Shown here in pieces: positions 5,719-27,485 of a DNA stretch of 64,000 bases. Both the position numbers and the translations under genes were made by a program. The notes beneath the pieces were generated by a model, which did no database searches, was not told the origin of the DNA, and saw nothing but the letters and a program-made list of their open reading frames with translations. Numbering within the stretch: the first letter of the stretch is position 1; the number at the start of each line of letters is the position of its first letter. Source of the DNA: Solirubrobacterales bacterium (GTDB taxonomy: Bacteria > Actinomycetota > Thermoleophilia > Solirubrobacterales > 70-9); the NCBI GenBank assembly GCA_035765335.1, contig DASTXV010000054.1, positions 1,260-65,259 of the forward strand, written 5' to 3'.

Positions 5719-8134
<2,416 letters not shown>

Positions 8135-8145
<11 letters not shown>

Positions 8146-8304
8146 TGGCGAAACCCGCGTGTGCGGCTGGCGAGCCCCGGACCAAGCGGGGCAAGGACGC
8201 AGGGAGGCCGAATAGCAGAGCTATTTGGCCGACCGAGGACGCCGCACCGCGCAGTGTGTCCGGGGGCGCCAGACGTGCGCGGGGGTTTCGCCAATGCCCC
8301 CTAG
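8135..8304. repeat. 170-bp palindromic element with perfect 22-bp terminal inverted repeats (element D)
   Basis: CTAGGGGGCATTGGCGAAACCC at 8135-8156 is the exact reverse complement of 8283-8304. The interior is an imperfect long hairpin centred on GGCCGAATAGC-AGA-GCTATTTGGCC. Confidence 0.85.
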
Positions 8305-8708
8305 GCATCAGACTTGGTCGTGAACTTCGACGGGCACTTCGTGATCAGGGTGTCCGGCTCGCCGACGAAGGTGCCGTTCTCGATCGCGCCGGTGAGGATG
8401 ATCTCGCGGCCGCCGCGGAACGGGTCGGGGACGGTGCCGTCGTAGCTCACCGGCAGGCTCTTGCCGCTGCCGTCGCGGTCGACGACGCGGAAGGTGATGC
8501 CGTCGCCCCCGCGCCGGACCGAGCCCTTGACGACGCGGCCGGTCATCTCGTAGCTGGTGCCGGGAGCGGCGTTGAGCAGCTGCGAGGGCTCCTTCGCCTC
8601 GGTCGAGGCCGAGAAGGAGGTGTAGATGAGGGCCACCGCCAAGAGCACCGCGGTGCTGAGCGCGACGACGAGCCGGATCTTCCGCTTCCGCTGAGGGTCC
8701 ACAGGCAA
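8301..8708 (-). CDS. ccmE: cytochrome c maturation heme chaperone CcmE (Cys-variant)
   Basis: N-terminal TM anchor plus an OB-fold body. The C-terminal motif is KCPSKF where the canonical motif is H-x3-Y. Confidence 0.85.
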   Translation of the reverse strand: MPVDPQRKRKIRLVVALSTAVLLAVALIYTSFSASTEAKEPSQLLNAAPGTSYEMTGRVVKGSVRRGGDGITFRVVDRDGSGKSLPVSYDGTVPDPFRGGREIILTGAIENGTFVGEPDTLITKCPSKFTTKSDA

Positions 8709-8749: not shown

Positions 8750-9454
8750 ATGGCAGATGACCCCGTCCTGCTGATCACCGGCGCCAGCAGCGGCATCGGC
8801 GCCGCCACCGCCCGGGCCGCGGCCTCCGGCTACCGGCTGGTGCTGGCGGCGCGGCGCGAGGAGGAGCTGCAGGAGCTGGCAGAGAAGCTGGGTGGTGGGG
8901 AGCGGGCGCTGGCGGTCCGCTGCGACGTCACCGAGTGGGACCAGGTCGAGGCGATGGCCGCGGCGGCCCTGGAGCGGTTCGGCCGCATCGACGCGGTCTT
9001 CGCCAACGCCGGCTTCGGCGCCGCCCGCGGCTTCCTCGAGGAGTCGCCCGAGCATTGGCGCTCGATGGTCCTCACCAACGTCTACGGGGTGGCGCTGACG
9101 ATCCGCGCCACCCTCCCCCACCTGCTCGAGCGCGGCGACGGCCACTTCCTCGTCACCAGCTCGATCGCCGGCCGCCGGGTGCTGCCCGGCTCGCTCTACT
9201 CGGCGACGAAGTGGGCGGCGACGGCGATCGGCGAGGCGCTGCGCCAGGAACTGCGCCAGATGCACGAGAACCACGGGATCAAGGTGACGCTGATCGAGCC
9301 GGGGATGGTCGACACCCCCTTCTTCGACAACCGGCCGGGCGACGCGGCGCTGAGCGACGACGACATCGCCCGCGCGGTGATGTACGCGCTGGAGCAGCCG
9401 CCGGGCGTCGACGTCAACGAGATCCTGATCCGGCCGATCACCCAGTCGAACTAA
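8750..9454 (+). CDS. SDR-family oxidoreductase
   Basis: TGASSGIG cofactor motif and YSATK catalytic motif. Confidence 0.9.
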   Translation: MADDPVLLITGASSGIGAATARAAASGYRLVLAARREEELQELAEKLGGGERALAVRCDVTEWDQVEAMAAAALERFGRIDAVFANAGFGAARGFLEESPEHWRSMVLTNVYGVALTIRATLPHLLERGDGHFLVTSSIAGRRVLPGSLYSATKWAATAIGEALRQELRQMHENHGIKVTLIEPGMVDTPFFDNRPGDAALSDDDIARAVMYALEQPPGVDVNEILIRPITQSN

Positions 9455-10473
9455 CGCAGCGCCAGGCGCACGAGGCGCCAGTAGCCGCGCAGCGCCAGGC
9501 GCGCTGGCCGGGAGCGGGCCAGCGGCGAGATCAGGTCGGAGTCGAGGTCCGGGGTGAGCCAGGCGGCGAACTCGGCGGCGGAGACGACGCGCCGGGCCTG
9601 CACCTGGCGGCGCTCGCGCAGCAGCCGCGGCAGCCAGCGGAGGAATTCGAGGTTCGCCCGCAGCTTCTGCCTCCCCCAGCCGCCCGTCGCCGAGACCAGC
9701 AGCAGGGCGAGCTCGGTGGCGAGCAGGGCCGGGGCGAGCAGGGCCAGCAGGGTCCCGGGGTAGGTACGGACGAGGAAGGCGAGCCGGTTGCGCTCGAGCC
9801 AGCGCCACTTGTCCTCGCTGGCGGCGAACTCGTAGTCGTGGGCGACGACCGCCGCCGGCTCGATCCCGACCGGGTGCCCGGCCGAGCGCAGCCGGACCGA
9901 GATGTCGACGTCCTCGTGGTACATGAAGAACTCGGCGGGGAAGCCGCCGACCTCGCGCCAGCGCGCCAGCGGGATCGCCAGGCAGGCGCCGGAGGCCGCG
10001 GTGACCTCGCCCGCGGGCGGCGCCTCGGCGAGCGGTCGCCCGTGGCCGCCGGCCCAGACGATGCCGGTGAAGTGGACCGGGTTGCCGGCGGAGTTGATGA
10101 GGGCGCCCTCGCCGTCGGCGACCAGGGCCTGCCAGGCTCCCCAGCCCCGGTCCTCGAGCCAGGGCCGGCGGATCGCCTCGCCGAAGCCGGGCTGCGGCGC
10201 GGCGTCGGGATTGAGGATCACCAGCAGGTCGCCGCCCGCCACCTCGGCCCCGGCGTTGCAGCCGCCGGCGAAGCCGGTGTTCCCCCCCGGTTGCACGATC
10301 CGCGCCGCCGGTGCCAGCTCCCGCGCGACCTCGACACTGCCGTCGCCGGGCTTGTTGTCGACGACGATCAGCTCGTCGCCGTCGCCCAGCTCAGGGAGCA
10401 GGGCGGGAAGGGTCTTGGTGAGATCGTCGCGGCTGTCGTAAGCGACGATCAGGGCTGAGAGCGTCGGGCGCAC
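9451..10473 (-). CDS. family-2 glycosyltransferase
   Basis: ALIVAYDSRDD, VVDNKPGDGS, GGNTGFAGGCNAG and HEDVDISVRL blocks. Same strand as paralog 1 and 65 nt downstream of it. Confidence 0.85.
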   Translation of the reverse strand: MRPTLSALIVAYDSRDDLTKTLPALLPELGDGDELIVVDNKPGDGSVEVARELAPAARIVQPGGNTGFAGGCNAGAEVAGGDLLVILNPDAAPQPGFGEAIRRPWLEDRGWGAWQALVADGEGALINSAGNPVHFTGIVWAGGHGRPLAEAPPAGEVTAASGACLAIPLARWREVGGFPAEFFMYHEDVDISVRLRSAGHPVGIEPAAVVAHDYEFAASEDKWRWLERNRLAFLVRTYPGTLLALLAPALLATELALLLVSATGGWGRQKLRANLEFLRWLPRLLRERRQVQARRVVSAAEFAAWLTPDLDSDLISPLARSRPARLALRGYWRLVRLALR

Positions 10474-10537: not shown

Positions 10538-13500
10538 CTACTTCTTGCCCTTCTTCTTCTTGCCGCAGGAGACGATGTTCAGCTTCTGCCGGTTGTTGTT
10601 CTTCTTCTTGCCGTTCTGGCCCTTCATCTTCACGATCGCGCGCTGCGGCTTGGCGCAGGTGTTCTGTGAGTTGACGAGCAGGCTCTTTTTGCCGCCCTTC
10701 ATGTTGAGGACGAACTTGCTCACCGGCACGTCGGGGACCTTCCTGAAGACCGTCTTCAGGCCCCCGGTGCTGCCACTACTGATCACGCCGCGCAGGTGGA
10801 TGTCCACCTGGCCACGCAGATCGACCAGCAGGTCCGGCAACTCGTTGTTGGAGGAGACGAGGTACACCTTCCCCGCCAGCTTCTTGCTGAGCAACGGCGA
10901 CTTCGCCCATGCCTTCCCGTAGACCGAGGCCTTCGGGCACTGGTGGGCCGCCAGCTGCGGCCGGGTGCAGACGGTGCCGATGTGACCCTGTTCGAGGAAC
11001 AGGGAGCGCGGCATCGTCACCGCCGTGCGGGCCATGTTGGCATCGGCCTTACGCGCGGTCAGGGTCGCCTTCAGGCGCGGGTACTTGTTCCGCGTCGTGC
11101 CGCCGAAGAGCTGGATCTTCAGCTTCGGCTTGAAGGCGAGCTTGTTGCATTGGGTCGCCTGGAACGGGTCGCTGACGGCGTAGGAGCTGAACGCGGCCGG
11201 ATTGGTCGGGTCGGCACCTCCACCGTTGATCGTCCCCGCCGTCGCCTGCGCTTTGCAGTTCGTCGGGTTGAGCATGAACCCGCCACGGTCGACGTTGAGG
11301 TCGATCAAGCGGATATCGAGCTTCGCCCCGCCGAAGACGTCGGGGATGACATCCGAGACGGCTCGGATCTGGGCGGTTTCCGGGTTGACGTTCAGCGCCA
11401 CCCGGACGACCACGGTGCCGAGGTCGAACGGACCCGCCACTGCCGGGGTGATGGTCACCATCGACAGCGGTGCGCCTTTGTACGGGCCGGCGAGGTAGGC
11501 GATCCCGCTCAGCTGGAGCGGGTTAGACCCGGTGCCGGACTGGGTGGTCACTGTACCGATGTAGCTGTCACTCGAACAGCTCGGATTTGACTTCTCTGCC
11601 TGGCCGCTCTTGCCGATCGCCGCCGCGATGGCCGGCTCAGGGCAGTAGGGGATGCCGGCGAGTTTGCCGGTCAGGCCCTTCGGCAGGGTGACGTCGACCA
11701 CCTTCAGCTCCTGCTGGCCGTCGGTGCGCCCGATGCGGACGCGGAACGGCGAGTAGGCGCGGGCTTTGGTGCTGTTGGTCCTCGCGGTGTAAGACGGCGC
11801 GAACTTCCGCTCCGCCATCGTCGCCGGACAGGCACCGCCACCCGGGTCGCTCGAGAGCGTGACTTTCGATTTCGTTTTCACGTTCGTGTCGGGACGCGCC
11901 CACGGTTCGAACGTGCTTTCGCCTTCGGTCGAGCAGATCGGCGGGCTCGAGAGGACGTCTTTCGAGCCTTTGAGATGGAGCCTGATCTCCTCGAAGGGAA
12001 CCTGCGGCAGACCCACGGGCTGATCGGTGAACTGCCCTTGGAGGTCGTCGTAGATTTCCGCGGTCAGCTGACCGGTCGTTTTGTTGGCCTTGACCCGGCC
12101 GACGAGACGAGCGGCGATGCCCTCGTTCTCGTTCTTGGCTTCGATCAGGATCCGGTACAGGTCGCCCGATTCCGGATCGCTGCTCTTCTGTTCGCCGACG
12201 TAGACGTCGCCGGTGAGCAGTTCCGCCAGCGGCGGCGAGTCAACTTCGACCGTGCCGATCTTGGACTCGGCCGGGCACTCGTTCGTGTAGGTCCGCTCGC
12301 CCTTGTTGAACTGGGCGTCGGTGCAGGCGACAAGGCCCTGAGCCCCGGCGGGGTTCAAGCCCATGCCGGCCGGCATCTGGACTTCGGCTTTGCGAACGTG
12401 GGACTGCGAGATCCCTTCGGTGCCGCCATTCCTGACTTCCCCGCCTTCTTTCGCGGGATCGAAGGGCAACCTCGTCGTCACCGTCACCGGCGCCGGGGAA
12501 TCGACGGCGCTGGTGCCGGGGTTGACCTCAACCGTCGGATCGAACGGAACCAGGTCACACCCGGTCGCCTGCATGCCTTCCGGCAGTTTCGCCTCCCAGG
12601 GAGTGGAACCAGCCGGGAAGGTGGCGTTCGGTTCGCCCCAGGACTCCGCTCGGAACCAGGTCGAGTAGAGGGTCGGGAGCTGATCCGGATCGAAGCAGGT
12701 GGTCGGATTGGTGATGTAGGTGCCGTCACCGGCGGTCCCGGTTTTCTGGTTCCCCGCTTCCTGGCCGAAGTTCACCAAGCGGCTTTTCAGGGTCGAGAAC
12801 GGAACCGACGGTTCGGGGAGACGGATCGTGAAGCTCTCGTGGAAGTCGTTCTCCCACGCCACTTCGGTCTCCAGGAAGACAACTCGCTGGAAGGCGATCA
12901 CGAAACCGAAACGGGCGGGTTCGCCCGGCTCCGGCTCGATGTTGTAGACCGGGACTTTCGTTCCCTGGGCGGGATTCGGTTTGATCACGAACCCTTTCGG
13001 CAGGAAGGTTCCCGGCGGAGCGGGCGGCGGAGCAGGCACGGCGCCTGCGGTGTTGACCACGAGCCACACTTCCTCTTCGCCGACGATCGACCCGTCCGGA
13101 CAGTTGGGCACTTGCGCGAATTTGCCCGGTTCGGTTTCGACTTTGGTTTCGAACGCGGCCCTGGAGCACTTTTCCGTCGCCTGAGGGTTGACGGTCAGCC
13201 CCGGCGGTAGATCGACGCGCAGGGTCTTGATCGTCCGGTTGGCAATCGGCTCTTCGATCGGTTCAAGCGTCCCGAACGGAGTCGGGCCGACTACGTCATG
13301 CCGGACGATGTATTGCGTGAACCCGATCGGCGGGTGTCCGCCGGCCTGGGTGAAGAACAGGCCCGGCGTTTCCGCTGAGCAGAACTCTTTCGCCGGATCT
13401 TCTTCTTCACTGTTTTCGGTACAGGTCCCGGCTTGGAAGCCGTTTTCTTTCTCGAGCGGCTCTTCCTGAGACTCGACGATGTTGCCGGTGTCGGCCTGAG

Positions 13501-13567
13501 CCAGCACGGGCATCGCCATCAAGGCCCCGAGACACATGAGAAGCAGCGCAAGCGAGCGCTTTGCCAT
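10538..13567 (-). CDS. large secreted Cys-rich protein, paralog 1 of 3 (unknown family)
   Basis: ATG preceded by GGAGGG. Signal peptide MAKRSLALLLMCLGALMAMPVLAQA. Collinear conserved blocks with the two upstream ORFs. Ends CGKKKKGKK. Confidence 0.85.
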   Translation of the reverse strand: MAKRSLALLLMCLGALMAMPVLAQADTGNIVESQEEPLEKENGFQAGTCTENSEEEDPAKEFCSAETPGLFFTQAGGHPPIGFTQYIVRHDVVGPTPFGTLEPIEEPIANRTIKTLRVDLPPGLTVNPQATEKCSRAAFETKVETEPGKFAQVPNCPDGSIVGEEEVWLVVNTAGAVPAPPPAPPGTFLPKGFVIKPNPAQGTKVPVYNIEPEPGEPARFGFVIAFQRVVFLETEVAWENDFHESFTIRLPEPSVPFSTLKSRLVNFGQEAGNQKTGTAGDGTYITNPTTCFDPDQLPTLYSTWFRAESWGEPNATFPAGSTPWEAKLPEGMQATGCDLVPFDPTVEVNPGTSAVDSPAPVTVTTRLPFDPAKEGGEVRNGGTEGISQSHVRKAEVQMPAGMGLNPAGAQGLVACTDAQFNKGERTYTNECPAESKIGTVEVDSPPLAELLTGDVYVGEQKSSDPESGDLYRILIEAKNENEGIAARLVGRVKANKTTGQLTAEIYDDLQGQFTDQPVGLPQVPFEEIRLHLKGSKDVLSSPPICSTEGESTFEPWARPDTNVKTKSKVTLSSDPGGGACPATMAERKFAPSYTARTNSTKARAYSPFRVRIGRTDGQQELKVVDVTLPKGLTGKLAGIPYCPEPAIAAAIGKSGQAEKSNPSCSSDSYIGTVTTQSGTGSNPLQLSGIAYLAGPYKGAPLSMVTITPAVAGPFDLGTVVVRVALNVNPETAQIRAVSDVIPDVFGGAKLDIRLIDLNVDRGGFMLNPTNCKAQATAGTINGGGADPTNPAAFSSYAVSDPFQATQCNKLAFKPKLKIQLFGGTTRNKYPRLKATLTARKADANMARTAVTMPRSLFLEQGHIGTVCTRPQLAAHQCPKASVYGKAWAKSPLLSKKLAGKVYLVSSNNELPDLLVDLRGQVDIHLRGVISSGSTGGLKTVFRKVPDVPVSKFVLNMKGGKKSLLVNSQNTCAKPQRAIVKMKGQNGKKKNNNRQKLNIVSCGKKKKGKK

Positions 13568-13652
13568 TGATTCCCTCCTCGTTTTTACCTAACGAGGACG
13601 CCCCCTGAAGCGCCCATGAACTTCCCTCCCGCACTAATAAACATACAGGGCC

Positions 13653-13680
13653 GGGCGGGTCTTTCAAGTAATACCCGCCC
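13653..13680 (-). terminator. possible intrinsic terminator after paralog 2
   Basis: GGGCGGGT-N12-ACCCGCCC. On the minus strand it is followed by GGCCCTGTATGTTTATTAGT, which is only moderately T-rich. Confidence 0.4.
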
Positions 13681-13755
13681 TCACCACTGTGTAACCGTGT
13701 CACCGATTTGTGACATGACACTTTTCGGTGACTAGGTCACCCTGCTTGGGGAACC

Positions 13756-16692
13756 CTAGGTTCCCTTCTTCTTCCCGCAGGGAGTGCGCAGCTTCGGCTT
13801 GCTGTTCGCCCGCTTCCCGTTCTGGGCTTTGATCTTGATGATCGCTTTGACCGGCTTCGCGCAGAGGTTCACGGAGTTGACCAGGAGGCCCTTTTTGCCG
13901 CCGGGCAGAGTCATCACGAACTTGCTCACCGGGACGTCGGGGACTTTCCCGAAGGTGGTGCGGAGGCCGCCGCGGAAGCTGTCGATGCGGCCGACCAGAT
14001 CGATCGTCACCTGCCCCTCGAGGTGGGCGACCAGATCCGGCAGCGTGTTGTTGGAAGAGCGCAGATATACGGGCCCCTCCAACGGCTTGCCGAGCAGCGG
14101 CGTGAACGCCCGCGCCCGACCGTAGATCGACCGCTTCGGGCATTTGTCAGCGGCAAACTGGACCCGGGTGCAGACCGTGGCGAGGCTCGCCTGGTCGAGG
14201 AAGAGCGCCCGCGGCAGCGCCACCGAGGCCCGGCGGATGTTGGCGTCCTTGCCGCGCGCCCGCAGCACCGCGCGCAGTTTCGGGTGCTTGGCCCGCTGGG
14301 TCTTGCCGAAGAGGCGGATCTTCAGCTTCGGGCGGAATTTGAGCTTGCGGCAACCGCTCGCCTGGAAGGGCTCGGCGACTTTGAAGGGGGCGAATGCGTT
14401 CGGGTTCAGCGGGTTCGCGCCGCCGCCGTAGATCGCCCCCACCGTCTCACCTTTGCGGCAGTTGGTGCCGTTGAGGGTGAAGTCCTTGCGGTTGACGTTG
14501 AGGAAGATCGAGCGGATGTCGAGCTTGGTGCCGCCGAAGACGTCGGGGATCTCGTCGGTCTTCGGGTGGATCCGGGCCGTCTCCGAGGCGAGGAAGAGCG
14601 GCACCCGGACGACCACGTTGCCGAGGTCGAACGGACCGGCGATCGCCGGCGTCACGACGACGATCGAGAGCGGCGCTCCTTTGTGGCGGCCGGCGAGGTA
14701 GGCGTCGCCCTCGATCTCCAGGGGCGAGGGGCCGGTGCCGGCCTGCACTTTGGCGATCCCGATCTTGCTGCCGTCCGGGCAGCTGGCGTTTTTCCTCTCC
14801 GCCCGGCCGGAGCGCTCTTCGGCGCCGGCGATCGCTTTCGGCGGGCAGTAGGGAACGCCTTTCAGCTTCGCCGTCGCCCCCGGCGGCAGCAGGATGTCGA
14901 TCCCTTTCAGCTCCTGCTGTCCCGGCGGGCGGGTGATGTTGGTCGAGAACGGGGTGAAGGTCTTCGCCCGGTCGCTTTTCGGCTTGGCGTTGAAGCCGGG
15001 CGCGAAGGGGCGCTGGCCCATCGTTTTCGGGCAGGGCCCGCCACCGGGGAGCGAGGCGAGGTCGAATTTGCTCGAGGGAGTCGCCGGGCCTTTGCCGGAG
15101 AACTGCGCCGACCACGGGGTCAGCTGGGTGCTGGTGGTGTTCGGCCCGCAGGTCGGGGGGCTACTGAGAGCGGCTTTGGCGCCGTCGTCGATATCGATCT
15201 TGAAGCTGGTGAAGGGAACCTGCGGCAGCCCATTCGGCAGGTTGTCGGAGTTGCCGCCCCGCAGCACGTTCTTGGGCGGGTCGTCGAAGACCGCGGTCAG
15301 CTGCCCGGTCTTCGCGTTGGCGATGACGTTGCCGACCAGCCGCAGGTCGACGCCGTAGCGGTCGGAGAAGGCGTGGACGAGGATCCGGTACTCCTCCCCG
15401 GATTCCGGGTCGCGGCTCTTCTGCTCGCCGACGTAGACGTTGCCGGTCAGCGGCCCCTCCGGCAGCGGCGGCGTCGCCACCGTCACCGTCCCGACCTTCG
15501 AAGCCGGCGGGCAGGCGACCGGGTTGCGGGTCCCCTTGCCGAACTGGGCGTCGGTGCAGGCGGCGAGCCCGTTGGCAGCGGAGGGGTTGAGCCCCATCCC
15601 CTGCGGCAGCGTCACCCGCGCCGTCCTCATCGTCGAGGTTTCCTGGCCGGTGGCGCTCGGTTCGACCGGCAGCTTCACCTCGGTGACCGCCCCGGCGGGA
15701 GAGTCGACCTGTTTGGTTCCGGGATCGACCTCGATCGAGGGGTTGAAGGGGATCGAGGCGCAGTCTTTCGGGCTCGTCCCCGGCGGCAGCTTCGACTCGA
15801 CGAAGGGCGAGCCGTTGGGGAAGCTCGGGTCGGTGTTTTCGATCGAGTCGGCCCGCGCGTAGGTCGAGTAGGTGTGTTCGTGGGCGGGCTGCGTCGGGTC
15901 GAAGCAGGTGCTGGGGGCGCTGATGAAGTAGCCGACCCCCGGATCGACATGGGCGCGACCGTTGAAGATGAGCCGGTTCTGGAGCAGTTTCACGTCGGGG
16001 ACCTTGGGCACCTGGATCGTGAAGCCCTCGTGGAAGTCGGACTCCCAGGCGACGTCCGCCTCCAGGTAGATGTCGCTCGGCGGCAGCAGCGGCAGGTCCG
16101 GGACCGGTTCGACCGTGAAGCCGAAGCGGGCGGGCTGGCCCGGTTTCGGTTTCAGGTTGTAGACCGAGGCGGTGATCGGCACCGGCGGCAGCAGCGGCGC
16201 TTCCGGCGAGGCGAGGACGACGCTTTCGCCGACTTTGGTGTTCGGCGGGCAGTCCCGCGGCCGTTCCGCCTCGCACTGCGGGGTCGCGCCCGGGTTGACG
16301 CTGAGCCCGACCGGCAGGTCGACCCGCAGCGTCTTCATGTTCACTTCCGGCTCTTTGTGCGTGAGTTCCGTTTTGTGCCGGACGATGAACTGGGTAATCC
16401 CGAACGGCGGGTGGCCGGCGGCCGTTTCGTAGAACTCGACTTTCGGGCTGTCAGGAGCGCAGGTCGGCGTGTTGCAGGTCCCCGCCTGCCACCCGTCTTC
16501 GGAGTTCGGCGGGTTGTTCTGCGGCTCGAAGACGACTTCCCCGGCCTGCGCCGCGGGAGCGAGCAGGGCCGCAAAGACGGCCGCGAGCAAAATGGTCTGG
16601 ACGACTGGCTTCCTCACCTGCCAGGTCCGTACCCATCTCACCCAGGACTTAATCGCGACGGGCAGAGGGGGCGGGGTACCTCCTCCAGACAC
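13756..16692 (-). CDS. large secreted Cys-rich protein, paralog 2 of 3 (unknown family)
   Basis: Maximal ORF. The real start is probably an internal GTG (about 16617-16641) giving signal peptide VRKPVVQTILLAAVFAALLAPAAQA. Ends PCGKKKGT. Confidence 0.8.
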   Translation of the reverse strand: MSGGGTPPPLPVAIKSWVRWVRTWQVRKPVVQTILLAAVFAALLAPAAQAGEVVFEPQNNPPNSEDGWQAGTCNTPTCAPDSPKVEFYETAAGHPPFGITQFIVRHKTELTHKEPEVNMKTLRVDLPVGLSVNPGATPQCEAERPRDCPPNTKVGESVVLASPEAPLLPPVPITASVYNLKPKPGQPARFGFTVEPVPDLPLLPPSDIYLEADVAWESDFHEGFTIQVPKVPDVKLLQNRLIFNGRAHVDPGVGYFISAPSTCFDPTQPAHEHTYSTYARADSIENTDPSFPNGSPFVESKLPPGTSPKDCASIPFNPSIEVDPGTKQVDSPAGAVTEVKLPVEPSATGQETSTMRTARVTLPQGMGLNPSAANGLAACTDAQFGKGTRNPVACPPASKVGTVTVATPPLPEGPLTGNVYVGEQKSRDPESGEEYRILVHAFSDRYGVDLRLVGNVIANAKTGQLTAVFDDPPKNVLRGGNSDNLPNGLPQVPFTSFKIDIDDGAKAALSSPPTCGPNTTSTQLTPWSAQFSGKGPATPSSKFDLASLPGGGPCPKTMGQRPFAPGFNAKPKSDRAKTFTPFSTNITRPPGQQELKGIDILLPPGATAKLKGVPYCPPKAIAGAEERSGRAERKNASCPDGSKIGIAKVQAGTGPSPLEIEGDAYLAGRHKGAPLSIVVVTPAIAGPFDLGNVVVRVPLFLASETARIHPKTDEIPDVFGGTKLDIRSIFLNVNRKDFTLNGTNCRKGETVGAIYGGGANPLNPNAFAPFKVAEPFQASGCRKLKFRPKLKIRLFGKTQRAKHPKLRAVLRARGKDANIRRASVALPRALFLDQASLATVCTRVQFAADKCPKRSIYGRARAFTPLLGKPLEGPVYLRSSNNTLPDLVAHLEGQVTIDLVGRIDSFRGGLRTTFGKVPDVPVSKFVMTLPGGKKGLLVNSVNLCAKPVKAIIKIKAQNGKRANSKPKLRTPCGKKKGT

Positions 16693-16741
16693 TCAACATC
16701 GAGCCATAGCGAGATGTGTCTGGAGGGGGTGCCCCGCCCCC
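16667..16741. repeat. 75-bp hairpin with 25-bp arms between paralog 3 and paralog 2 (element C)
   Basis: GGGGGCGGGGTACCTCCTCCAGACA at 16667-16691 pairs with TGTCTGGAGGGGGTGCCCCGCCCCC at 16717-16741 at 23 of 25 positions. Confidence 0.75.
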
Positions 16742-16744
16742 TCC

Positions 16745-19639
16745 CTACCGCCGAGTCTTGGTCCGCTTGCCCGCTTTGCCCTTGCAGCCGGGCGTCCGCA
16801 GCGGCAGCTTCTTCACCCGCAGTTTCTTGCCGTTCTGAGCCTTGAACTTGAGGATCGAGTGGTTCTTGCGGCCGCAGAGGTTTTGCGAGTTGACCAGCAG
16901 GCCTTTCTTGCCGCCCTTCATCCGCAGCACGAACTTGCTCACCGGCACGTCGGGGACACTGGCGAAGACGGTCCGCATCCTTCGTTTCCGGGAGTCGATG
17001 ACGCCGCGGAGCCGCGCGTTCACCTGCCCCTTGAGGTCGGCCAGGAGGTCCGGCAGTTCGTTGTCGGATGAGGTCAGGTAGACGGGGCCGGCCACTTTCT
17101 CGTCCAGCAGCGGACTCTCGGCCCAGGCGTATCCATATATAGAGCGACGCGGGCAGGCCGAGGCGGCGAGCTGGACGCGGGTGCAGATCGTGCCGATGTG
17201 GCCCTGGTCGAGGAACTGGGAGCGCGGCAGCGTCAGCGCCGCCCGCTTGATGTTGGCGTCGCCTTTGCGGGCGACCAGCACCGCCTGGAAGGCCGGGTGC
17301 CCGTTGCGCCGCATTTTCTTGCGGTTGCCGATCAGCTTCGTGAACAGCTTCGGGCGGAATTTCAGCGCCCCGCAATCGCTCGCCCGGAAGGGGGCGTTGA
17401 CGCCGAAGGCGCTGAAGGCGGCCGGGTTGTTGGGGTCACCGCCGCCGCCGTTGAGGGCGCCGGTGGTGGCGAGGGGCTCGCAGCTGGTCGGGTTGAGGGT
17501 GAAATCGGGTCGGTCCATCTTCAGGTCGACCGAGCGGACGCTGAGCAGGGTGCCGCCGAAGACGTGCGGGATCGGGTCGGAGAGAGCCCGGATCTGCGCC
17601 GTCTCGGGATCGACGAACAGGGCCACCCTCACCACGACCGTGCCGAGATCAAACGGCCCGGCCGTGGCGGGGGTGACCACTGCCAGGGAGAGAGGGGCCC
17701 CGTTGTAGGGGCCTGAGAGGAAGACCTTGCCATCGATGCTAAGCGGGGCGGAGCCGGTGCCGGCGGCGACGGTGGCGCTGCCGACCTGGCTGGCGGCGGG
17801 ACAGCTGGAGCTCGCTTTCTCCTCCTCGCCGGACCTACCGGCCGCGGCGGCGAGCGCCTCCTCCGGGCAGTAGGGGATGCCGCGCAGGCTGCCGGTCATC
17901 CCCGGCGGCAGGACGATGTCCGTCCCTTTCAGCTCCTGCTGGCCGTCGCCGCGGTTGATCTGGATCGAGAGGGGGCTGAAGGCGCCGGCTTTCGAGCTCG
18001 CGGGCGCGGCCCCGAAGGCGGGCGAGAACGGACGCTCGGCCATCGTTTTCGGGCACGGGCCGCCGCCCGGGAGGCTGGCGAGCGTGAACTCGCCGCCGGG
18101 GGTGGCGGGCGCGTTGCCCGACCACGGCGTCATCACGGCGCCGCTCTGATTGGGTCCGCAGGTCGGCGGGCTGCTGAGAGCCGCCTGCGCCCCGCCGTCC
18201 AGCTTCACCTCGAAGCTCTCGACTTGGGACTGCGGCGTGTCGGAGATGGTGGTGGTCAACTGACCCGTCTGCGGATCGGCGCTGACCTTGCCGATCAGGC
18301 GGACGTCGATCCCGTAGCGAGGCGACACCGCGTTGATGAAGATCCGGTACAGGTCCCCGGAGAGGGGGTCGCGGCTGAGCTGCTTGCCGACGTAGACGGG
18401 TCCCTTGAGCGCCGGGCCTTCTTCGTTCTCTTCCGGCAGCGCCGGGGAGTCGATGACCACCGAGCCGACCCGCGAATCCTCCGGGCAGGCGACCGGGTTC
18501 CTCGTGCCCTTGCCGAACTGCTCGTCGGTGCAGACCTGCAGGCCGTTGGCGGCCGAGGGGTTGAGGCCCATCCCCAGCGGCAGCGTCACCTTCGATTCCC
18601 TCGTCGTCGAAGTCTGCTGTTCGCTCTCCGCCAGGGTCAGGTGCGGAATGTCGATGTCGACCGTTGCCCCGGCCGGCGAGTTCACCTCCGCGGTGCCGGG
18701 CTCGACGGCGAGCGAGGGGTCGTAGGGAATCGAGTCGCATTCTTTGGGCGAGGTGCCCGGGGGGATGGGCGATTCGAGCGGCGGTTCGGCGCTCTGCGGC
18801 CAGACGTAGTCCTCGTAGGGCGCTTTCTGTTCGAGCTGCGGGTAGGAAGCGGCGAGCAGGTAGGTGGAGTAGACACTGCCGGATTCGGTGAAGGCTTCGC
18901 CGAGGCAGGTGCTGGGGGTGGTGATGAAGGTGCCGTCCCCGGCGCGGCCGTTGAAGACCAGGCGGTTTTTGAGGACGAACCCTTCGAGGGCGGCGGGCAG
19001 CACTTTGGGGACCTCAATCGTGAAGCCCTCGTGGTAGTTGCCGGACCAGTCGGCGTCTCCCTCCAGGTAGACGTTGTTGTCCGCGAGCCTGAGTCCGAAC
19101 CGCGCGCTCTCCCCTTCGACCGGAACGACGTTGTAGACCTCGGCGTGGAGGGGAGCCGACCCCCCGAGCAGCGGGTCGCCGGCGGTGACGTAGCTGTCGC
19201 CGACGTGAGATCCCGGCGGGCAGGTGGTGGGGTCGGCCTCGAAGGTGGCGAGCGGGCAGCGCGGGGTCGCGCCCGGGTTGACGTTGAGGCCGACCGGCAG
19301 GTCGACCCGGACCCGGGCCAGTTCCGCTTCCGGTTTCGGCCCCAGGGTGCCGTCGCTGTGCTTGACGATGAACTGGGTGAAGCCCCAGTGGGGGTGGCCG
19401 GCGGCCTGTTCGAAGAACCATTCCGGCGTTTCAACCGAGCAGACTTCCGCCCCCGGCGCCCCCGGGTTGGGGGCTTCGGTGTCGCAGGTCCCCGCCTGCC
19501 AGCCGGAGTCGACTTTGGGGTTATGCGGATCGCTGGGGGCAATGATTTCTTCGGTGCCGCCGGCGAACGCCGTCGATGCCAGCCCGAGCACGAGCGCTGC
19601 GCATAGAGAAAGAACCGAGCCGATAAGTCGTCCCCGCAT
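16745..19639 (-). CDS. large secreted Cys-rich protein, paralog 3 of 3 (unknown family)
   Basis: ATG at 19639 is preceded by TAGGAGGAG. The ORF track's 19666 start lacks an SD. Signal peptide MRGRLIGSVLSLCAALVLGLASTAFA. Ends GCKGKAGKRTKTRR. Confidence 0.85.
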   Translation of the reverse strand: MRGRLIGSVLSLCAALVLGLASTAFAGGTEEIIAPSDPHNPKVDSGWQAGTCDTEAPNPGAPGAEVCSVETPEWFFEQAAGHPHWGFTQFIVKHSDGTLGPKPEAELARVRVDLPVGLNVNPGATPRCPLATFEADPTTCPPGSHVGDSYVTAGDPLLGGSAPLHAEVYNVVPVEGESARFGLRLADNNVYLEGDADWSGNYHEGFTIEVPKVLPAALEGFVLKNRLVFNGRAGDGTFITTPSTCLGEAFTESGSVYSTYLLAASYPQLEQKAPYEDYVWPQSAEPPLESPIPPGTSPKECDSIPYDPSLAVEPGTAEVNSPAGATVDIDIPHLTLAESEQQTSTTRESKVTLPLGMGLNPSAANGLQVCTDEQFGKGTRNPVACPEDSRVGSVVIDSPALPEENEEGPALKGPVYVGKQLSRDPLSGDLYRIFINAVSPRYGIDVRLIGKVSADPQTGQLTTTISDTPQSQVESFEVKLDGGAQAALSSPPTCGPNQSGAVMTPWSGNAPATPGGEFTLASLPGGGPCPKTMAERPFSPAFGAAPASSKAGAFSPLSIQINRGDGQQELKGTDIVLPPGMTGSLRGIPYCPEEALAAAAGRSGEEEKASSSCPAASQVGSATVAAGTGSAPLSIDGKVFLSGPYNGAPLSLAVVTPATAGPFDLGTVVVRVALFVDPETAQIRALSDPIPHVFGGTLLSVRSVDLKMDRPDFTLNPTSCEPLATTGALNGGGGDPNNPAAFSAFGVNAPFRASDCGALKFRPKLFTKLIGNRKKMRRNGHPAFQAVLVARKGDANIKRAALTLPRSQFLDQGHIGTICTRVQLAASACPRRSIYGYAWAESPLLDEKVAGPVYLTSSDNELPDLLADLKGQVNARLRGVIDSRKRRMRTVFASVPDVPVSKFVLRMKGGKKGLLVNSQNLCGRKNHSILKFKAQNGKKLRVKKLPLRTPGCKGKAGKRTKTRR

Positions 19640-19701
19640 TGAATTTCTCCTCCTAAAACTTCCCATTAAGCATTCTCGACGAATAACCTACCCGAAAATC
19701 A

Positions 19702-19730
19702 TGACTTGAGTCAATAATTTTGGGTAATAT
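19702..19730 (+). promoter_or_regulatory. putative operator palindrome and -10 box in the divergent paralog-3/ArsR intergenic region
   Basis: TGACT-TG-AGTCA at 19702-19713. TAATAT at 19725-19730 lies only 6 nt before the ArsR ATG, suggesting a leaderless transcript. Confidence 0.3.
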
Positions 19731-19736
19731 GGCGCC

Positions 19737-20123
19737 ATGCCAACCCAAAACGGACATTCCCCCCACGCTTATTCTGCAAACGGCAACGGCAACGGCTTTT
19801 CCCCGCAAAACGGTCGAAAAGAGGAGTCGGTGCCCGTCAACTGGGAGCGCCTCGCGCGGGCGACCGCGCATCCTTTACGCGTCTCGATCCTCGAAATCCT
19901 CGGAATCGACGGCGGCCGGATCCTCTCCCCCAGCGATCTCAGCCGCGAGCTGCAGATCCCCCTCAGCAACACCAACTACCACGTCACCGAGCTGGCGAAA
20001 GCCGGCCTGATCGAACTGGTGCGGGAGCGACAGGTGCGCGGCGCGACCGAGCACTTCTACCGCCTGCCGGTATCCGAAGGAGCGAGCGCAAAGGAGCGAG
20101 GACACCTCTCAGTTGCAGCCTAA
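19737..20123 (+). CDS. ArsR-family winged-helix transcriptional regulator
   Basis: HPLRVSILEIL...LSPSDLSRELQIPLSNTNYHVTELAKAGLIE is a typical ArsR/SmtB wHTH. Confidence 0.8.
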   Translation: MPTQNGHSPHAYSANGNGNGFSPQNGRKEESVPVNWERLARATAHPLRVSILEILGIDGGRILSPSDLSRELQIPLSNTNYHVTELAKAGLIELVRERQVRGATEHFYRLPVSEGASAKERGHLSVAA

Positions 20124-20149: not shown

Positions 20150-20479
20150 CTACTTCTCGCGCACGATCACCGTGCGGCCGTCGGCGAGCCGGTAGACGGT
20201 GCCCACCGGCTCCCCCCTGCCGACGACGCGCTCGCCCGGCTTCAGCTCGAGCGGCTTCACCTCCTGGTTGCGCTCGGCCACGACCGGCTCCTGCGCGCTC
20301 GCCGCCTGGGCGCGCTCCTTCGCCTGCTCGGTCAGCGCCGAGGTGAGGTCGAGCGAGGAGAGCGCCGCCAGCAGGAAGGCGACCGAGAGGACGATCCCGA
20401 GGTCGAAGAGATTGACGAGGCCGTCGAGCGGATCGCCGGCGCGGTCGTCGCGGCTGCGAGCCCGGGCGGTCACCCTCAC
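20150..20479 (-). CDS. DUF2149-like small membrane protein (usual partner of MotA/TolQ/ExbB channels)
   Basis: GDPLDGLVNLFDLGIVLSVAFLLAAL TM segment plus a C-terminal beta-rich part. The GTG start overlaps the TGA of the upstream ExbB fragment (GTGA). Confidence 0.55.
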   Translation of the reverse strand: MRVTARARSRDDRAGDPLDGLVNLFDLGIVLSVAFLLAALSSLDLTSALTEQAKERAQAASAQEPVVAERNQEVKPLELKPGERVVGRGEPVGTVYRLADGRTVIVREK

Positions 20480-20721: not shown

Positions 20722-21075
20722 CTAGCTAGGACTAGCTGAGCCTCTCTCGGAACGCTTTAACTCCCGTTCACAGAGCTTTGCAGCAACATCCCGTGATTCC
20801 CTTGGAATAGCCTTGGTCACACGTTGTACGACAGCCTCCATAGTGGGCTCTACCCCAAGAAGCAGGGAGAGCTGTTTGATGGTTCGACCGCGACACCGAA
20901 GTACTATCCATTCCTTTACTGCGGCCAGATCACCGGCTTCTACAGGTCTGAGTTCTGAGAAGCGCTGAGGTCCTCGGTCTTTTCCCTGGTTCTCAGTCAA
21001 GATAACCCCCATACCAATTAAGCCAAGGATCAATGCCAGCAGAATGAAATTTCTCCACATCCTCATTTGGTGCAT
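20722..21075 (-). CDS. candidate Rhs immunity protein, N-terminally membrane anchored
   Basis: Immediately downstream of rhs. Three in-frame ATGs; the one at 21066 gives an ATGA overlap with the rhs stop. TM WRNFILLALILGLIGMGVILT followed by an ~85-aa soluble domain. Low GC. No family recognised. Confidence 0.5.
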   Translation of the reverse strand: MHQMRMWRNFILLALILGLIGMGVILTENQGKDRGPQRFSELRPVEAGDLAAVKEWIVLRCRGRTIKQLSLLLGVEPTMEAVVQRVTKAIPRESRDVAAKLCERELKRSERGSASPS

Positions 21076-24000
21076 ATTGACCCATAGGTAAAGCTAAACG
21101 AGTCTCGGTAAGTGTGACTGCGACGATTTCCCTTCGGGGTTTCCCAGGAAACCTGGAACAGTACTTCAACTTCTCCGGTCCGGACAACACCGCAAGGCAC
21201 ATTCGACGTGAACGAAGTTGATGCTTCTGCGTGGCATGCAAATTTCGGAGCTACATCGCCACACTCCTCCAATGGGCCTTTTGCCGCCGGAATATATCGC
21301 ATCTTGCCTGACAGGGTTTCGTAAGCACCTCCGGTTATCACAGCCTTGACCTTTACGTTTTTGGGTTTCCCTTTGCAGCGGATCCATGCACTAGCCGATA
21401 CTCGGATTTCCCTTCCCGCTCCACGATGGGGCTTCAGTTTTTGTTCCCGTGGCTTGCAGGGGGGCGCTTCTCCGCTTAGGTCAAATACGTTAATCGGGTC
21501 AGCATTGCTGTAGTCATATGCGGTCGCTGAGCCTCCTCGCACGGGGTCGGGTGACAGGAACCGACCTATCGTCGGCACATAACTCCTTACTCCCATTTGA
21601 ATAACACCCGAAGGAAGTTCGGTTCGGCGCTGCTTCCCACCAAGCCAGCCATAGCGATCGGCGTTGCCAGGGATCGGATTGCCAAACTCGTCGTAGCGGG
21701 TGGTTTTTACTAGACTGGTGACTTCCTGATCGATCGGGGCGGTCGCCACGATGTCGCCGTGGAGGTTCGCCAGCTGCAGCGTCGTCTCATCTTGACCTCC
21801 GGCGCTGGTTTCCTTAAGGGCCACGAGTTCGCCGCCTAAACCCATCATGTTCAGGGTCCGAACCTGTCCGCGCTCGGTCCATGCGGGAGAGTCGGAGGGG
21901 CCGGCGTAGTGAAATATTTCCGTTCCTTCTAAACCACCTGCTTGGTGGCGCGCTCGTTGGCGCAGGGAGGCATCGAGTTCGAACGTGTTGGTGATCCCAC
22001 CCTGGGACTGACTTGCGACCATGTCGGTCGAGAAGTAGCTGGTCGTCAGCTCTTCGTCGCCCGCAAGGTGGCCAGGCAATTTCGTTATCCGGCCGAAGCT
22101 GTCGTAGATCAATTCAGCAGCAACCAGACGGTCTGCCGCATCGTATTCGTAGGTCTTGGTCGTGCCGCCAGTGTTCGCACATGCTCCCTCGATCCCGGGT
22201 GATCGGGTCGTCAACGATTTCCGGTTGGAGTTGAGGTCGTAAACATAGGAGCGGGTGGTGCATTGGCCATCGTCCGGACTTTCCTCTGCGAAGATAAGTC
22301 GACCCGCCTTGTCGTAGCCGTAGCGCTGAGCACCGAGCGTTCCGTTTTCGCTCAGTATCTGACCCTCGATCGAGCGCTCGAGGTCGAAGTCGAGCCAAGT
22401 GCAGCTTTCACCGCAGTAGCTTTCCTTCGTGTAGGTGAGGTGGGTTGATTCACCCACCTCGTTGTAGGACGTGGTAGCGGTGAGACCATTGGGGAGACCC
22501 TGTTCGATCATCTTGCCGTCGGCGTCATAGCGTGCGGTGAAGATGCCGGCTTCGCTTTCCAGCTCGACCGGCACACCGCTAGCTTCGTCGTAGCGAACCA
22601 GCTGCGCCCCAATCCACTGCCCATTCTTTTCGACGTTCATCCAGTAGGGTCGGCCGGCAGCGTCGTACAACGTATTTGCCTTACCCCCATCCGCATCTTC
22701 ATAGCGTTTGACGCGACCGAGAGCGTCGTAGGTAGTCCTAGTTGCCTGACTGTCGAAACCCGTGCAATTGACGGAGCATAGGAATTTCTGCTCTACCGGC
22801 CTGCCATTAGTCGAGCTGTAGAGCGTTTCAACCATCGGCACGGCCTGCCCACCACCTTCAATCTTCTGCGTGCGTGGGCGCCCCGCCATGTCATAGCCCA
22901 GAAGGGTCCTGCGAAGGTTTTCGCTGCCGCCGCCAGGACTTTCGCGAATCTCCGTCGGCTGATCGAGGTTGTTATAGGTCCAGAACGTTTTCACCAGCAG
23001 CTGCGGCAAGCCAGCCGTTCCCGGCTGAGCCGCAGGCATCACCTTGCACGGCAGGCCCGCGTACTGGGGCACTCCACCGCATCCAGGTTGTTCGGAATTG
23101 GCCGTTTGCGAGTAGTAGATCGTCCTGGTGCTCCCGGCCCCTCCGCCTCCGGGATTCGAAGGCTGACGCACTTCCCTTGGCTGGCCGGTAGTGGCGTCGT
23201 AGGCCATCACCGAGCGAATGTTGAGGCCGCCGGGGTCGACAATGGTTTCAATCGGCTTGCGCAGAGTCCAGTCGTAGCGGGTTTCGGTGACGCGCTGATC
23301 GGAGTCGCTGCTCTGGCCTGGGACGGCGGCGCCGGTCGTTTCCTTCGTCGGCAGGCGCGGCGCGGATTCCCCCTCTTTCAGCGCTGGCGCGCCTTCATCG
23401 TATTTGACGGTGGTGTGCTGGCGCGCCTCGACCGTTTCGCCCGATTCGAGTCGCACCTCATGTAGAGGGCCCCAAGACTCGAGCATTTCGGTGCCATCAG
23501 CCGAGTAGACGGAATGGCTGTCCAGCTCGCGGGAGCGACCGACGGAATCGACGGACCCCAGCGCCCGCAGCCGGTTCTGCGCAGAGAGCGAGCGGATGAC
23601 GTTACCGTGATCATCGCTTTCGGTCGTGGTTATCGCCGATCCCGCTACTCCGGGCGGCGCAGCCGAAGCCGTGTTGACCTCATAGCCTTCCGGGTCCAGG
23701 TAGTGGATCCCGGCCCCCGTGTAGTCGCTCGGTCTTGGACTGTCCGGAACGTGACTTGGAGGAAAGATCGCGGTCGCGTCGACGGGGTAATCACTCTGAC
23801 CCCATTTTGCGACGGTTGAGGGGCTCATGTTGTATGGAGCCTCTTCGCCACTGAGCGGCACCTGGTACACGATGGTCGTCTGGGCAGTGGAAGGGCTCTC
23901 GAGCAGAGTCGCCCGCTTGACGCTCTTCAAGCGATTGAAGATCTCCCGATCGCGCCAATGATATTTCGCCACAGGGTCCCAGGGAAATTCAGTCGCTTTG

Positions 24001-27131: not shown

Positions 27132-27485
27132 GCAGCCCCGCCTTCCTACAGGAGTTTTTCCTTGACCGGAGCCGCAAACACTCAATGCGTACCAGTTGGC
27201 GAGGCATCCTGCACAGGAAGGAACGCCAAGTCCATACTAAATTTTTTACTTAATGTTTCCTAGATATGTTTCCTAAACTAGATGCCTTGTCCAAACAGGG
27301 CGTCGACGGCGAGCTTTATCTGACCGACGACAAAGTAACCGCTGGTACTAGACAAGTAGACCAAGAACTGCCAGATGAGCCCTGATGAAAGATCAAACAC
27401 TCCCTGGTCATCCACGCTGCTCAGGCGGCTTATGCGAAAGAAGGTCAACTAGCTCGAGGAACTGTTGCCTGCCTAGAAGATCAAA

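Follow-up and report, generated by a model that had tools for sequence, protein, structure and literature searches.

Among the bacterial surface proteins described so far, those closest to the proteins analysed here are the sortase-anchored multi-Ig proteins and pilins (MSCRAMM, SpaA-type), the surface-layer (S-layer) proteins (SLH/CWB2 types and PS2 of Corynebacterium), the subunits of the Saf pilus, the biofilm hydrophobin BslA of Bacillus subtilis and the giant surface proteins of the DUF11/TIGR01451 type. We compare with them the products of three adjacent paralogous genes, named P1, P2 and P3 (P3 is transcribed first, P1 last), from a 64,000-nucleotide stretch of a Solirubrobacterales bacterium, hereafter "the window" (GenBank assembly GCA_035765335.1, contig DASTXV010000054.1, positions 1,260 to 65,259 of the forward strand). 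As far as these tools can see, the family formed by P1-P3 matches no named family or solved structure in the libraries searched. Each protein consists of an N-terminal cap and four homologous β-sandwich repeats of ~200-240 aa with two Cys pairs per repeat, and the three are candidate structural components of the cell envelope.

With the sortase-anchored proteins P1-P3 share a Sec signal peptide, tandem Ig-like sandwiches, the clustering of 2-3 paralogues and an actinobacterial host, and a SpaA-type structure from Corynebacterium diphtheriae (3lso) is among the Foldseek matches of P3 (prob 0.98, TM-score 0.10-0.20). Unlike those proteins, they have no LPXTG/hydrophobic sorting signal, no sortase in their cassette and no Cna_B/pilin Pfam domains, and they appear to be stabilised by ~9 putative disulfides, no isopeptide-bond motifs having been recognised. 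S-layer proteins are likewise large, secreted and non-enzymatic, sometimes occur as paralogous sets and are often encoded beside glycosyltransferase genes. S-layer genes have strong promoters, strong Shine-Dalgarno sequences and structured 5' leaders, and P3 and P1 resemble them in their perfect Shine-Dalgarno sequences and conserved promoters; a further likeness would be a terminal segment for docking to the wall (putative in P1-P3) with the other end variable and exposed. In contrast to S-layer proteins, P1-P3 possess neither SLH nor CWB2 nor any other known anchoring domain, they are Cys-rich, and their presumed anchor is a basic tail of 6-12 residues. A Saf pilus structure (SafDAA-dsc, 5y9h) is the top Foldseek match of the P3 model (E-value 3.6e-8, prob 1.0), being a chain of Ig-like domains as P1-P3 are predicted to be, and the conserved strand after the signal peptide of P1-P3 could in principle serve as a donor; however, TM-scores normalised by query and target (TMq and TMt) are 0.11 and 0.19, the identity is 10%, P1-P3 have no chaperone/usher, belong to a lineage of Gram-positive type and are ~5 times larger. 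BslA (4bhu), a secreted Ig-type sandwich coating a surface, is the best-probability match of the second repeat of P3 (R2; prob 0.98-0.99, TMt 0.53-0.61), but with E-values of 0.013-0.037, TMq of 0.32-0.34 and 8-10% identity on a model with a predicted local distance difference test (pLDDT) value of 70.5; moreover, the repeat is ~100 residues larger, has two putative disulfides and no sign of a hydrophobic cap, and a profile search of PDB sequences revealed no sequence similarity of the family to BslA. The DUF11/TIGR01451 proteins, finally, are repetitive extracellular β-sandwiches of thousands of residues; one relative of P1-P3 is annotated as TIGR01451, and a DUF11 protein is the top match of P3 in BFVD, whereas P1-P3 themselves match neither PF01345 nor TIGR01451 at the thresholds used, and their disulfide-stapled repeat is ~2 times longer. 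In kind, the family belongs with the many bacterial multi-β-sandwich surface proteins; what is new is a large conserved family outside the current family and structure libraries, with a clear domain definition and an unusual C-terminal feature.

Four homologous repeats in each protein

A preliminary description of this DNA, made from the letters alone, had proposed three collinear, anciently duplicated minus-strand genes encoding signal-peptide-bearing proteins of an unrecognised family with paired cysteines, and had suggested profile searches and structure modelling as checks. The ORFs (open reading frames) stand exactly where it placed them (Table 1), and its length of 964 aa for P3 corresponds to the probable start codon at 19639. 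All 16 of its 16 shared motif blocks were found by regular expressions at equivalent positions in the paralogues, including LPQVPF, which is indeed confined to P1 and P2. The whole-length collinearity was borne out by a single three-way alignment with pairwise identities of 49-55%, far above chance. The hidden Markov model (HMM) of the family identified P1, P2 and P3 in the window (hmmsearch, 1369-1663 bits) and no further ORF. P3 and P1 are identical to the NCBI hypothetical proteins VFT79_09295 and VFT79_09285, respectively.

P3 most likely starts at ATG 19639, which is preceded by the perfect Shine-Dalgarno sequence GGAGGAGAA with a 5-nt spacer; GAGGAGGG stands, again perfect and with a spacer of 5 nt, ahead of ATG 13567 of P1. 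The true start of P2 is probably GTG 16614 (952 aa, MRKPVVQTILL...AQA/GE, a slash marking the cleavage position) or GTG 16641; GTG 16692, the start of the longest ORF, sits within a very stable hairpin of -69 kcal/mol and is less likely than GTG 16614. The signal peptide reported for each protein is present in all three, with a classical n-h-c organisation and an A-x-A end: AQA/D in P1 (MAKRSLALLLMCLGALMAMPVLAQA followed by DT), AQA/G in P2 (MRKPVVQTILLAAVFAALLAPAAQA followed by GE, counted from GTG 16614; also written ...LLAAVFAALLAPAAQA followed by GE) and AFA/G in P3 (MRGRLIGSVLSLCAALVLGLASTAFA followed by GG). Immediately beyond the cleavage site there is a short hydrophobic strand motif, which reads E-I-I, E-V-V or N-I-V in the proteins of the window and FG(I/L) in distant members. 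Scans of P1, P2 and P3 agreed with the reported absence of LPXTG and of a C-terminal transmembrane segment: LPXTG (LP.TG), CXXCH and the thioester motif CGEQ occur zero times, there is no transmembrane-like hydrophobic stretch beyond residue 60 (maximal Kyte-Doolittle value, KD19, 1.46-1.72, the peak being the conserved AGPFDLG..VVVRV β region), and the C-terminus bears no hydrophobic segment, only a basic tail.

Each mature protein contains 18 cysteines. In P3 (residues counted from ATG 19666) they are periodic, with 61/76 in the cap and two pairs in each of the repeats R1-R4 (Table 1), whose boundaries were obtained by cutting the family alignment according to this periodicity. The hhalign analysis related the repeats to one another with probabilities of 93% (R1-R2), 93% (R2-R3) and 97% (R2-R4), and HMMs of single repeats matched the other repeats as well, in all three paralogues. 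Since the segments recognise one another, each protein is a cap followed by four homologous repeats. The pairing of cysteines claimed from the three sequences extends far beyond them: in an alignment of 36 distant relatives the eight Cys pairs of the repeats are invariant or nearly so, while of the ninth pair, in the N-terminal cap, both residues are found in 9 members, neither in 26 and one only in 1. The total number of cysteines is even (16, 18 or 20) in 34 of these 36. The pattern looks like the signature of disulfides, the probable partners following from adjacency and periodicity. Beyond structural G, P and C, the family alignment contains few invariant residues.

The last invariant Cys is followed by a K/R/H-rich tail in nearly all of the 36 distant members; in the window the C-terminal ends, including that Cys, are CGKKKKGKK (P1), CGKKKGT (P2) and CKGKAGKRTKTRR (P3). 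No other genuine ORF of the window has a comparable basic tail. In this 72%-GC genome (GC, guanine plus cytosine) the tail is coded by AT-rich Lys codons (an AAG/AAA run), and such a run is unlikely to persist without selection at that GC content. Signal peptide, four repeats, eight Cys pairs and K/R/H tail together define membership of this unnamed family, and P1-P3 show them all. The four-fold repeat, the polybasic tail and the order-wide synteny discussed below are features beyond the preliminary description.

The notion of an unrecognised family held up in every library: searches of Pfam-A, NCBIfam, PHROGs and PADLOC gave no match for P1, P2 or P3, and matches in the PDB and by Foldseek were at chance level or generic. 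Among 36 diverse family members, Pfam searches with E-values up to 1 returned nothing recurrent (best: He_PIG in 3/36, E-value 0.047). Against PDB sequences, a 3-sequence profile yielded one chance-level match (E-value 1.9) and a 36-sequence profile none. Specifically, Cna_B/pilin, SLH (PF00395) and CWB2 (PF04122) domains were not found (Pfam/NCBIfam on P1-P3, Pfam on the 36 members), Pfam revealed no RHS repeats or DUF6531 in P1-P3, and neither the profile searches nor the structural model detected a catalytic domain in them.

The AlphaFold model of P3 (973 residues, alignment of 107 sequences) is almost all β, with pLDDT 88.2 and a predicted TM-score (pTM) of 0.79; so high a pTM over this length suggests that the domains are fixed relative to one another and not strung like beads. 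The segment after the signal peptide has lower pLDDT (65-83) and packs little in the monomer model. Foldseek comparison of the full model with the PDB reported SafDAA, integrin αV, α2-macroglobulin, complement, 3lso and Als9, i.e. stacks of Ig-like (also MG-domain) units with TM-scores of 0.06-0.20, and BFVD contributed DUF11, fn3 and phage tail proteins (TM-score ≤0.14). Modelled separately (pLDDT 70.5), repeat R2 had no match in the PDB better than an E-value of 0.0096; the likeliest were BslA and p53-like sandwiches (TMq ≤0.36). Modelling, like the profile searches, thus left the family without a characterised relative, the matches of the full model being generic multi-Ig ones with TM-scores ≤0.2: the predicted fold class is the β-sandwich, with no specific relative in the structure libraries searched.

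An exhaustive HMMER search of 1.84 billion cluster representatives (clusters at 50% identity) identified 7,925 clusters at E-value ≤1e-3 and 2,882 at ≤1e-30. The family comprises single-unit forms of 900-1,000 aa, forms with N-terminal extensions of 200-800 aa containing fn3 or Ig domains, and giants of 3,400-7,200 aa with 7-16 matched stretches. Apart from the single TIGR01451 annotation, the source names of the relatives are all "hypothetical protein", and the organism names are all Solirubrobacterales, Thermoleophilia or Actinomycetota metagenome-assembled genomes (MAGs); cluster look-ups and homologue searches for a cultured or named member returned only such hypothetical proteins from MAGs. 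Full-text literature searches on the cell surface or S-layer of Solirubrobacterales, Thermoleophilia and Conexibacter found nothing relevant.

The genomic context of distant members is varied and lacks ccm (cytochrome c maturation) genes. A relative of 7,167 aa lies within an envelope polysaccharide cluster (LytR_C, Wzy_C, Wzx-type flippase, GT2, GT4, Bac_transf). The GT2 glycosyltransferase encoded beside it is only 25% identical to the one adjoining P1 in the window, so a long-range conserved pairing of the family with this GT2 subfamily is unsupported. At the loci L084-L086 distant members share their operons with secreted proteins of the NHL-repeat and collagen-like types. Several of these, though unrelated in sequence, also end in K/R/H-rich tails; mainly for this reason we suspect the tail of being a shared localisation signal. 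These operons (5787-18700 in L084, 4830-21979 in L085, 4551-13304 in L086) encode NHL-repeat proteins of 1,385-1,817 aa, collagen-like/Flg_new_2 proteins and a second family member, and may constitute a separate uncharacterised surface apparatus; that of L085 is inserted in the ribosomal-protein/secY/adk/map region.

The cassette and its genomic position

One genome per GTDB species was scanned, which gave at least 564 relatives, and we examined the best 80 loci together with that of the relative L001 (81 loci, nearly all from species-level Solirubrobacterales genomes). The gene order is a divergent winged-helix regulator gene, then P3-P2-P1-GT2, then CcmE-CcmF, with an SDR gene between GT2 and CcmE/CcmF seen in the window and in L001. 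The same-strand GT2 gene after the array and the divergent ArsR-type regulator before it had both been named in the preliminary description, and both stand where it placed them. In 70/81 loci all three family ORFs are intact and at least 600 aa long, with the orthologues of P3, P2 and P1 in the same order; of the 11 remaining loci, 8 are cut by contig ends and L032, L056 and L069 have two copies followed by GT2. The regulator gene is divergent beside P3 in 81/81 loci, and GT2 follows P1 in essentially every complete locus. In the relatives, each paralogue most resembles the window gene at the same position; the triplication is therefore older than the radiation of these genomes, in agreement with the old duplication proposed earlier.

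The cassette interrupts the cytochrome c maturation cluster, separating CcmH and a CcmG-like thioredoxin from CcmE/CcmF, and ccm is split in this way in L001 too. GT2 begins 64 bp past P1 and is the final gene of the cassette; its product consists of a GT-A domain and one hydrophobic segment (residues ~237-262) and shows weak likeness to MftF and EpsD-type GT2s, well under the NCBIfam cut-offs. Examination of the locus, to which this search was confined, revealed no sortase gene in the cassette (regulator, P3, P2, P1, GT2) or its flanks (SDR, CcmE/F, DUF2149, RHS). Chaperone and usher genes are missing at the cassette in both the window and L001, and the cassette contains no dedicated signal peptidase or assembly gene.

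Between the regulator and the CcmG-like gene of the window, ~1 kb beyond the regulator, an island of low GC (0.61; 0.725 at third codon positions, GC3) encodes a 2,040-aa RHS/YD-repeat protein (RHS_repeat, DUF6531, Big_13), to which the RHS domains of this locus are confined. The 3' end of the RHS gene is overlapped by a 117-aa ORF that could be an immunity gene, and a DUF2149 protein is encoded nearby; in L001 the slot of the RHS gene is taken by a GGDEF gene. Elsewhere in the window lies another stretch of reduced GC (0.62); its product is a probably secreted 492-aa protein with fn3, PhoD_N and Big_10-type Ig domains, unrelated to the P1-P3 family.

Table 1. Window coordinates of the genes, protein segments and DNA elements discussed in the text.
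Feature	Positions	Strand	Details
CcmF	5719-8145		ccm gene, one side of cassette
CcmE	8301-8708		same side as CcmF
GT2 glycosyltransferase	9451..10473	-	340 aa; Pfam PF00535/PF13641
P1	10538..13567	-	1009 aa; start ATG 13567
P1 basic tail	10541-10564	-	GKKKKGKK; equivalent of P3 tail
P1 5' leader hairpin	13568-13640	-	CCUCGUU-N7-AACGAGG
P2-P1 intergenic region	13568..13755	-	188 bp; alignment of 14 loci, promoter scan
P2	13756..16692	-	longest ORF 978 aa; probable start GTG 16614 (952 aa) or GTG 16641
P2 basic tail	13759-13776	-	GKKKGT; equivalent of P3 tail
Hairpin after P3	16663..16745	-	stem ~30 bp; minimum free energy -69 kcal/mol, z -7.1
P3	16745..19666	-	longest ORF 973 aa; probable start ATG 19639 (964 aa)
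P3 polybasic tail	16748..16783	-	KGKAGKRTKTRR; after last Cys
P3 repeat R4	16772..17356	-	residues 771-965; Cys pairs 828/838, 931/961
P3 repeat R3	17357..18031	-	residues 546-770; Cys pairs 600/622, 729/765
P3 repeat R2	18032..18724	-	residues 315-545; Cys pairs 379/394, 503/538
P3 repeat R1	18725..19354	-	residues 105-314; Cys pairs 137/149, 254/310
P3 promoter	19685..19714	-	-35 TTGACT (19714->19709), 18-nt spacer, -10 TAGGTT (19690->19685)
Palindrome TGACT-NN-AGTCA	19702-19713	+	overlaps P3 -35
Winged-helix regulator	19737..20123	+	128 aa; HTH_20 / MarR_2 / ArsR-like; divergent from P3
DUF2149 protein	20150-20479
Small ORF	20722-21075		117 aa
RHS/YD-repeat protein	21063-27185	-	2,040 aa
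CcmG-like thioredoxin	27624-28148		opposite side of cassette from CcmE/CcmF
fn3/PhoD_N/Big_10-type protein	46271-47749	-	492 aa

The lower GC reported for the array is real, but the difference is modest (0.64-0.69 in P1-P3 against 0.71-0.75 in the flanks); GC3 is 0.84-0.91 compared with ~0.96. Recent horizontal gene transfer was considered as its cause and rejected, as the cassette occupies one fixed core-genome position across the order and differs widely in GC3 from the RHS island. Nor are the genes decaying: relatives have the ORFs intact, and the ratio of nonsynonymous to synonymous substitution rates (dN/dS; Nei-Gojobori method, six relatives) is 0.20-0.44 for all three, which points to purifying selection on functional yet quickly evolving proteins. 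Across 63 complete loci the mean identity to the window is 66% for P3, 65% for P2 and 62% for P1, with a large spread for P2 and P1 (standard deviation 9-10), compared with 78% for GT2 and 83% for CcmF. P1-P3 evolve about twice as fast as their neighbours, and fastest in the N-terminal halves: conservation among distant members rises from 24-38% in the cap, R1 and R2 to 50-51% in R3 and R4, and the same gradient is seen between P1, P2 and P3. In individual loci the identities of P3, P2 and P1 to the window are discordant (83/65/64% in L004, 70/85/75% in L009, 80/84/87% in L007) while GT2 and CcmF are steady, a hint of allele classes, or of recombination inside the cassette, such as surface antigens show.

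The spacer of 97 bp between the regulator gene and P3 is conserved in 25 aligned loci even where the proteins are 60-65% identical. It contains the P3 promoter with a -10 box of actinobacterial type, and the palindrome overlapping its -35 box (Table 1) is the presumed operator of the winged-helix protein. A TAATAT box stands only 6 nt ahead of the ATG of the regulator, which suggests that its mRNA is leaderless. In the P2-P1 spacer, conservation exceeds that of coding DNA (14 loci); it comprises TGTCAC/GTGACA repeats and a promoter-like pair of boxes (-35 TTGAAA, 16-nt spacer, -10 TATGTT). The P1 leader forms a hairpin (fold z -2.3) that reaches with its 3' arm into the Shine-Dalgarno sequence GAGGAGG, pairing half of it. 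This hairpin, without a single variant in 14/14 aligned loci, matches no Rfam family and may act in translational control or in stabilising the mRNA. GT2 has neither a promoter of its own nor a good ribosome-binding site, unlike P3 and P1, in which both are present; this fits abundant structural products accompanied by a low-level enzyme. The much stronger hairpin that begins at the P3 stop codon and spans the longest-ORF start of P2 gave only sub-threshold, miRNA-precursor-like matches in Rfam on both strands. It was rejected as a conserved regulatory element, being lineage-specific and missing from 6/8 relatives checked, and as a dispersed repeat, since the window contains it just once; it could stabilise the mRNA at the 3' end, or act as an attenuator, and so set the P3:P2 ratio in this lineage.

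Possible roles of P1-P3

The likeliest role in our judgement, though the odds stand about level, is that P1-P3 help to build the cell envelope of Solirubrobacterales as structural proteins without enzymatic activity. We consider this because of the signal peptides, the ~9 putative disulfides, the predicted rigid all-β body, the lack of a catalytic domain and the strong expression signals, together with the variable N-terminal and conserved C-terminal halves, the basic tail, the GT2 partner, the relatives extended by fn3/Ig domains and those located in glycan clusters. The preliminary description had likewise favoured a secreted or surface system: the signal peptides, the paired Cys, the fn3/Ig-extended relatives and the giant in the envelope-glycan cluster agree with it, and it keeps the standing of a prediction from sequence. 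In the mechanism that we infer, P1-P3 would be exported and their Cys pairs would then oxidise to disulfides; the basic, conserved C-terminal end would dock electrostatically on anionic polymers of the wall or membrane, leaving the variable N-terminal half facing outward, and the three paralogues would act jointly as a coat, sheath or short fibre, not as redundant copies. The membrane-associated GT2 might glycosylate them indirectly or build a polymer beneath them, and the winged-helix protein would act through the conserved palindromes as a repressor of the P3 promoter and perhaps of that of P1.

Several points weigh against this proposal. The generic Ig-like matches fit many functions equally well. 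P1-P3 contain no known wall-binding module (SLH, CWB2, LysM, LPXTG), and a basic tail of 6-12 residues, for which the anchoring role is a conjecture, is by itself a weak anchor. Classical S-layer proteins usually have no cysteine. The three genomes with two copies do not accord with a co-acting trio. GT2 is a generic member of its family, with a putative link to a glycan by synteny, and the named relatives are all from uncultured MAGs. A bolder variant, which we put forward only tentatively and hold to be rather doubtful, is that the terminal disulfide and polybasic tail form a general, sortase-independent retention signal shared with the unrelated, co-encoded NHL-repeat and collagen-like secreted proteins of Thermoleophilia, as part of an undescribed way of building and anchoring a surface of Gram-positive type, with the paralogues as a hetero-oligomeric, disulfide-stapled outermost coat.

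The secretion and disulfide features would be the same if P1-P3 were binding proteins set free outside the cell (for example adhesins, or scavengers of soil polymers, of minerals or of other cells), with the tail binding a target such as clay, humic or anionic polysaccharide or extracellular DNA instead of the own wall. There is no recognised wall anchor to contradict such a role, the fast-evolving N-terminal half fits ligand diversification as well, and fn3/Ig extensions like those of the relatives are found on many binding proteins; however, the strict three-gene stoichiometry and the GT2 partner resemble a built structure, the pTM of 0.79 predicts a rigid multi-domain body and not a flexible binder, and the giant relative lies within an envelope-glycan cluster, so that we consider release unlikely. 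Still less probable, in our opinion, are fibre or pilus subunits joined by donor-strand exchange (chaperone-usher, type V or TasA-like), with P3, P2 and P1 as major and minor subunits. The hydrophobic strand found family-wide right after the A-x-A site, which has reduced pLDDT and packs little in the monomer model, would be a plausible donor, the best-scoring structure is the donor-strand-complemented SafDAA, and three tandem paralogues are reminiscent of pilin gene sets. Against this, the TM-score to Saf is what generic Ig stacking yields, four-domain subunits of ~100 kDa are atypical of donor-strand pilins, none of the accessory genes (chaperone, usher, sortase, dedicated signal peptidase or assembly gene) occurs in the cassette, and the C-terminal basic tail is left unexplained.

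The position between CcmH/CcmG-like genes and CcmE/CcmF, shared by the window and relatives, could hint at a scaffold for redox or haem handling in a periplasm-equivalent space or at a component of extracellular electron transfer. We find this very improbable, as P1-P3 lack CXXCH and any other haem motif, invariant residues are few once structural G, P and C are set aside, distant members are encoded in unrelated contexts without ccm, and a single ancient insertion followed by vertical inheritance can account for the synteny. We give next to no credence to a mobile or conflict system, whether for delivering a toxin together with the RHS protein next door, as a tail or receptor-binding module of phage origin, or for defence: the proximity of the RHS/YD toxin island, the slightly lower GC and the phage tail proteins among the generic BFVD matches would suit it, but RHS-like sequence is found near the cassette in only ~6/81 loci, the GC3 of the island is unlike that of P1-P3, the cassette keeps its core-genome position, and neither the searches of PHROGs and PADLOC nor the viral Foldseek comparison (TM-score ≤0.14) connected the proteins with phages or defence.

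Solirubrobacterales are abundant soil Actinomycetota, among the most abundant and least understood actinobacterial orders of soil, and in these genomes the three large genes of the cassette are all without annotation despite occupying the same location in 70/81 loci. At a minimum, the definition of a ~220-aa repeat with two putative disulfides provides a basis for a new family model. The motif of the basic tail may prove to be a new signal for surface retention, usable for predicting surface proteins in this group, and if P1-P3 indeed form a cell coat, they would determine adhesion, desiccation resistance and phage recognition in soil.

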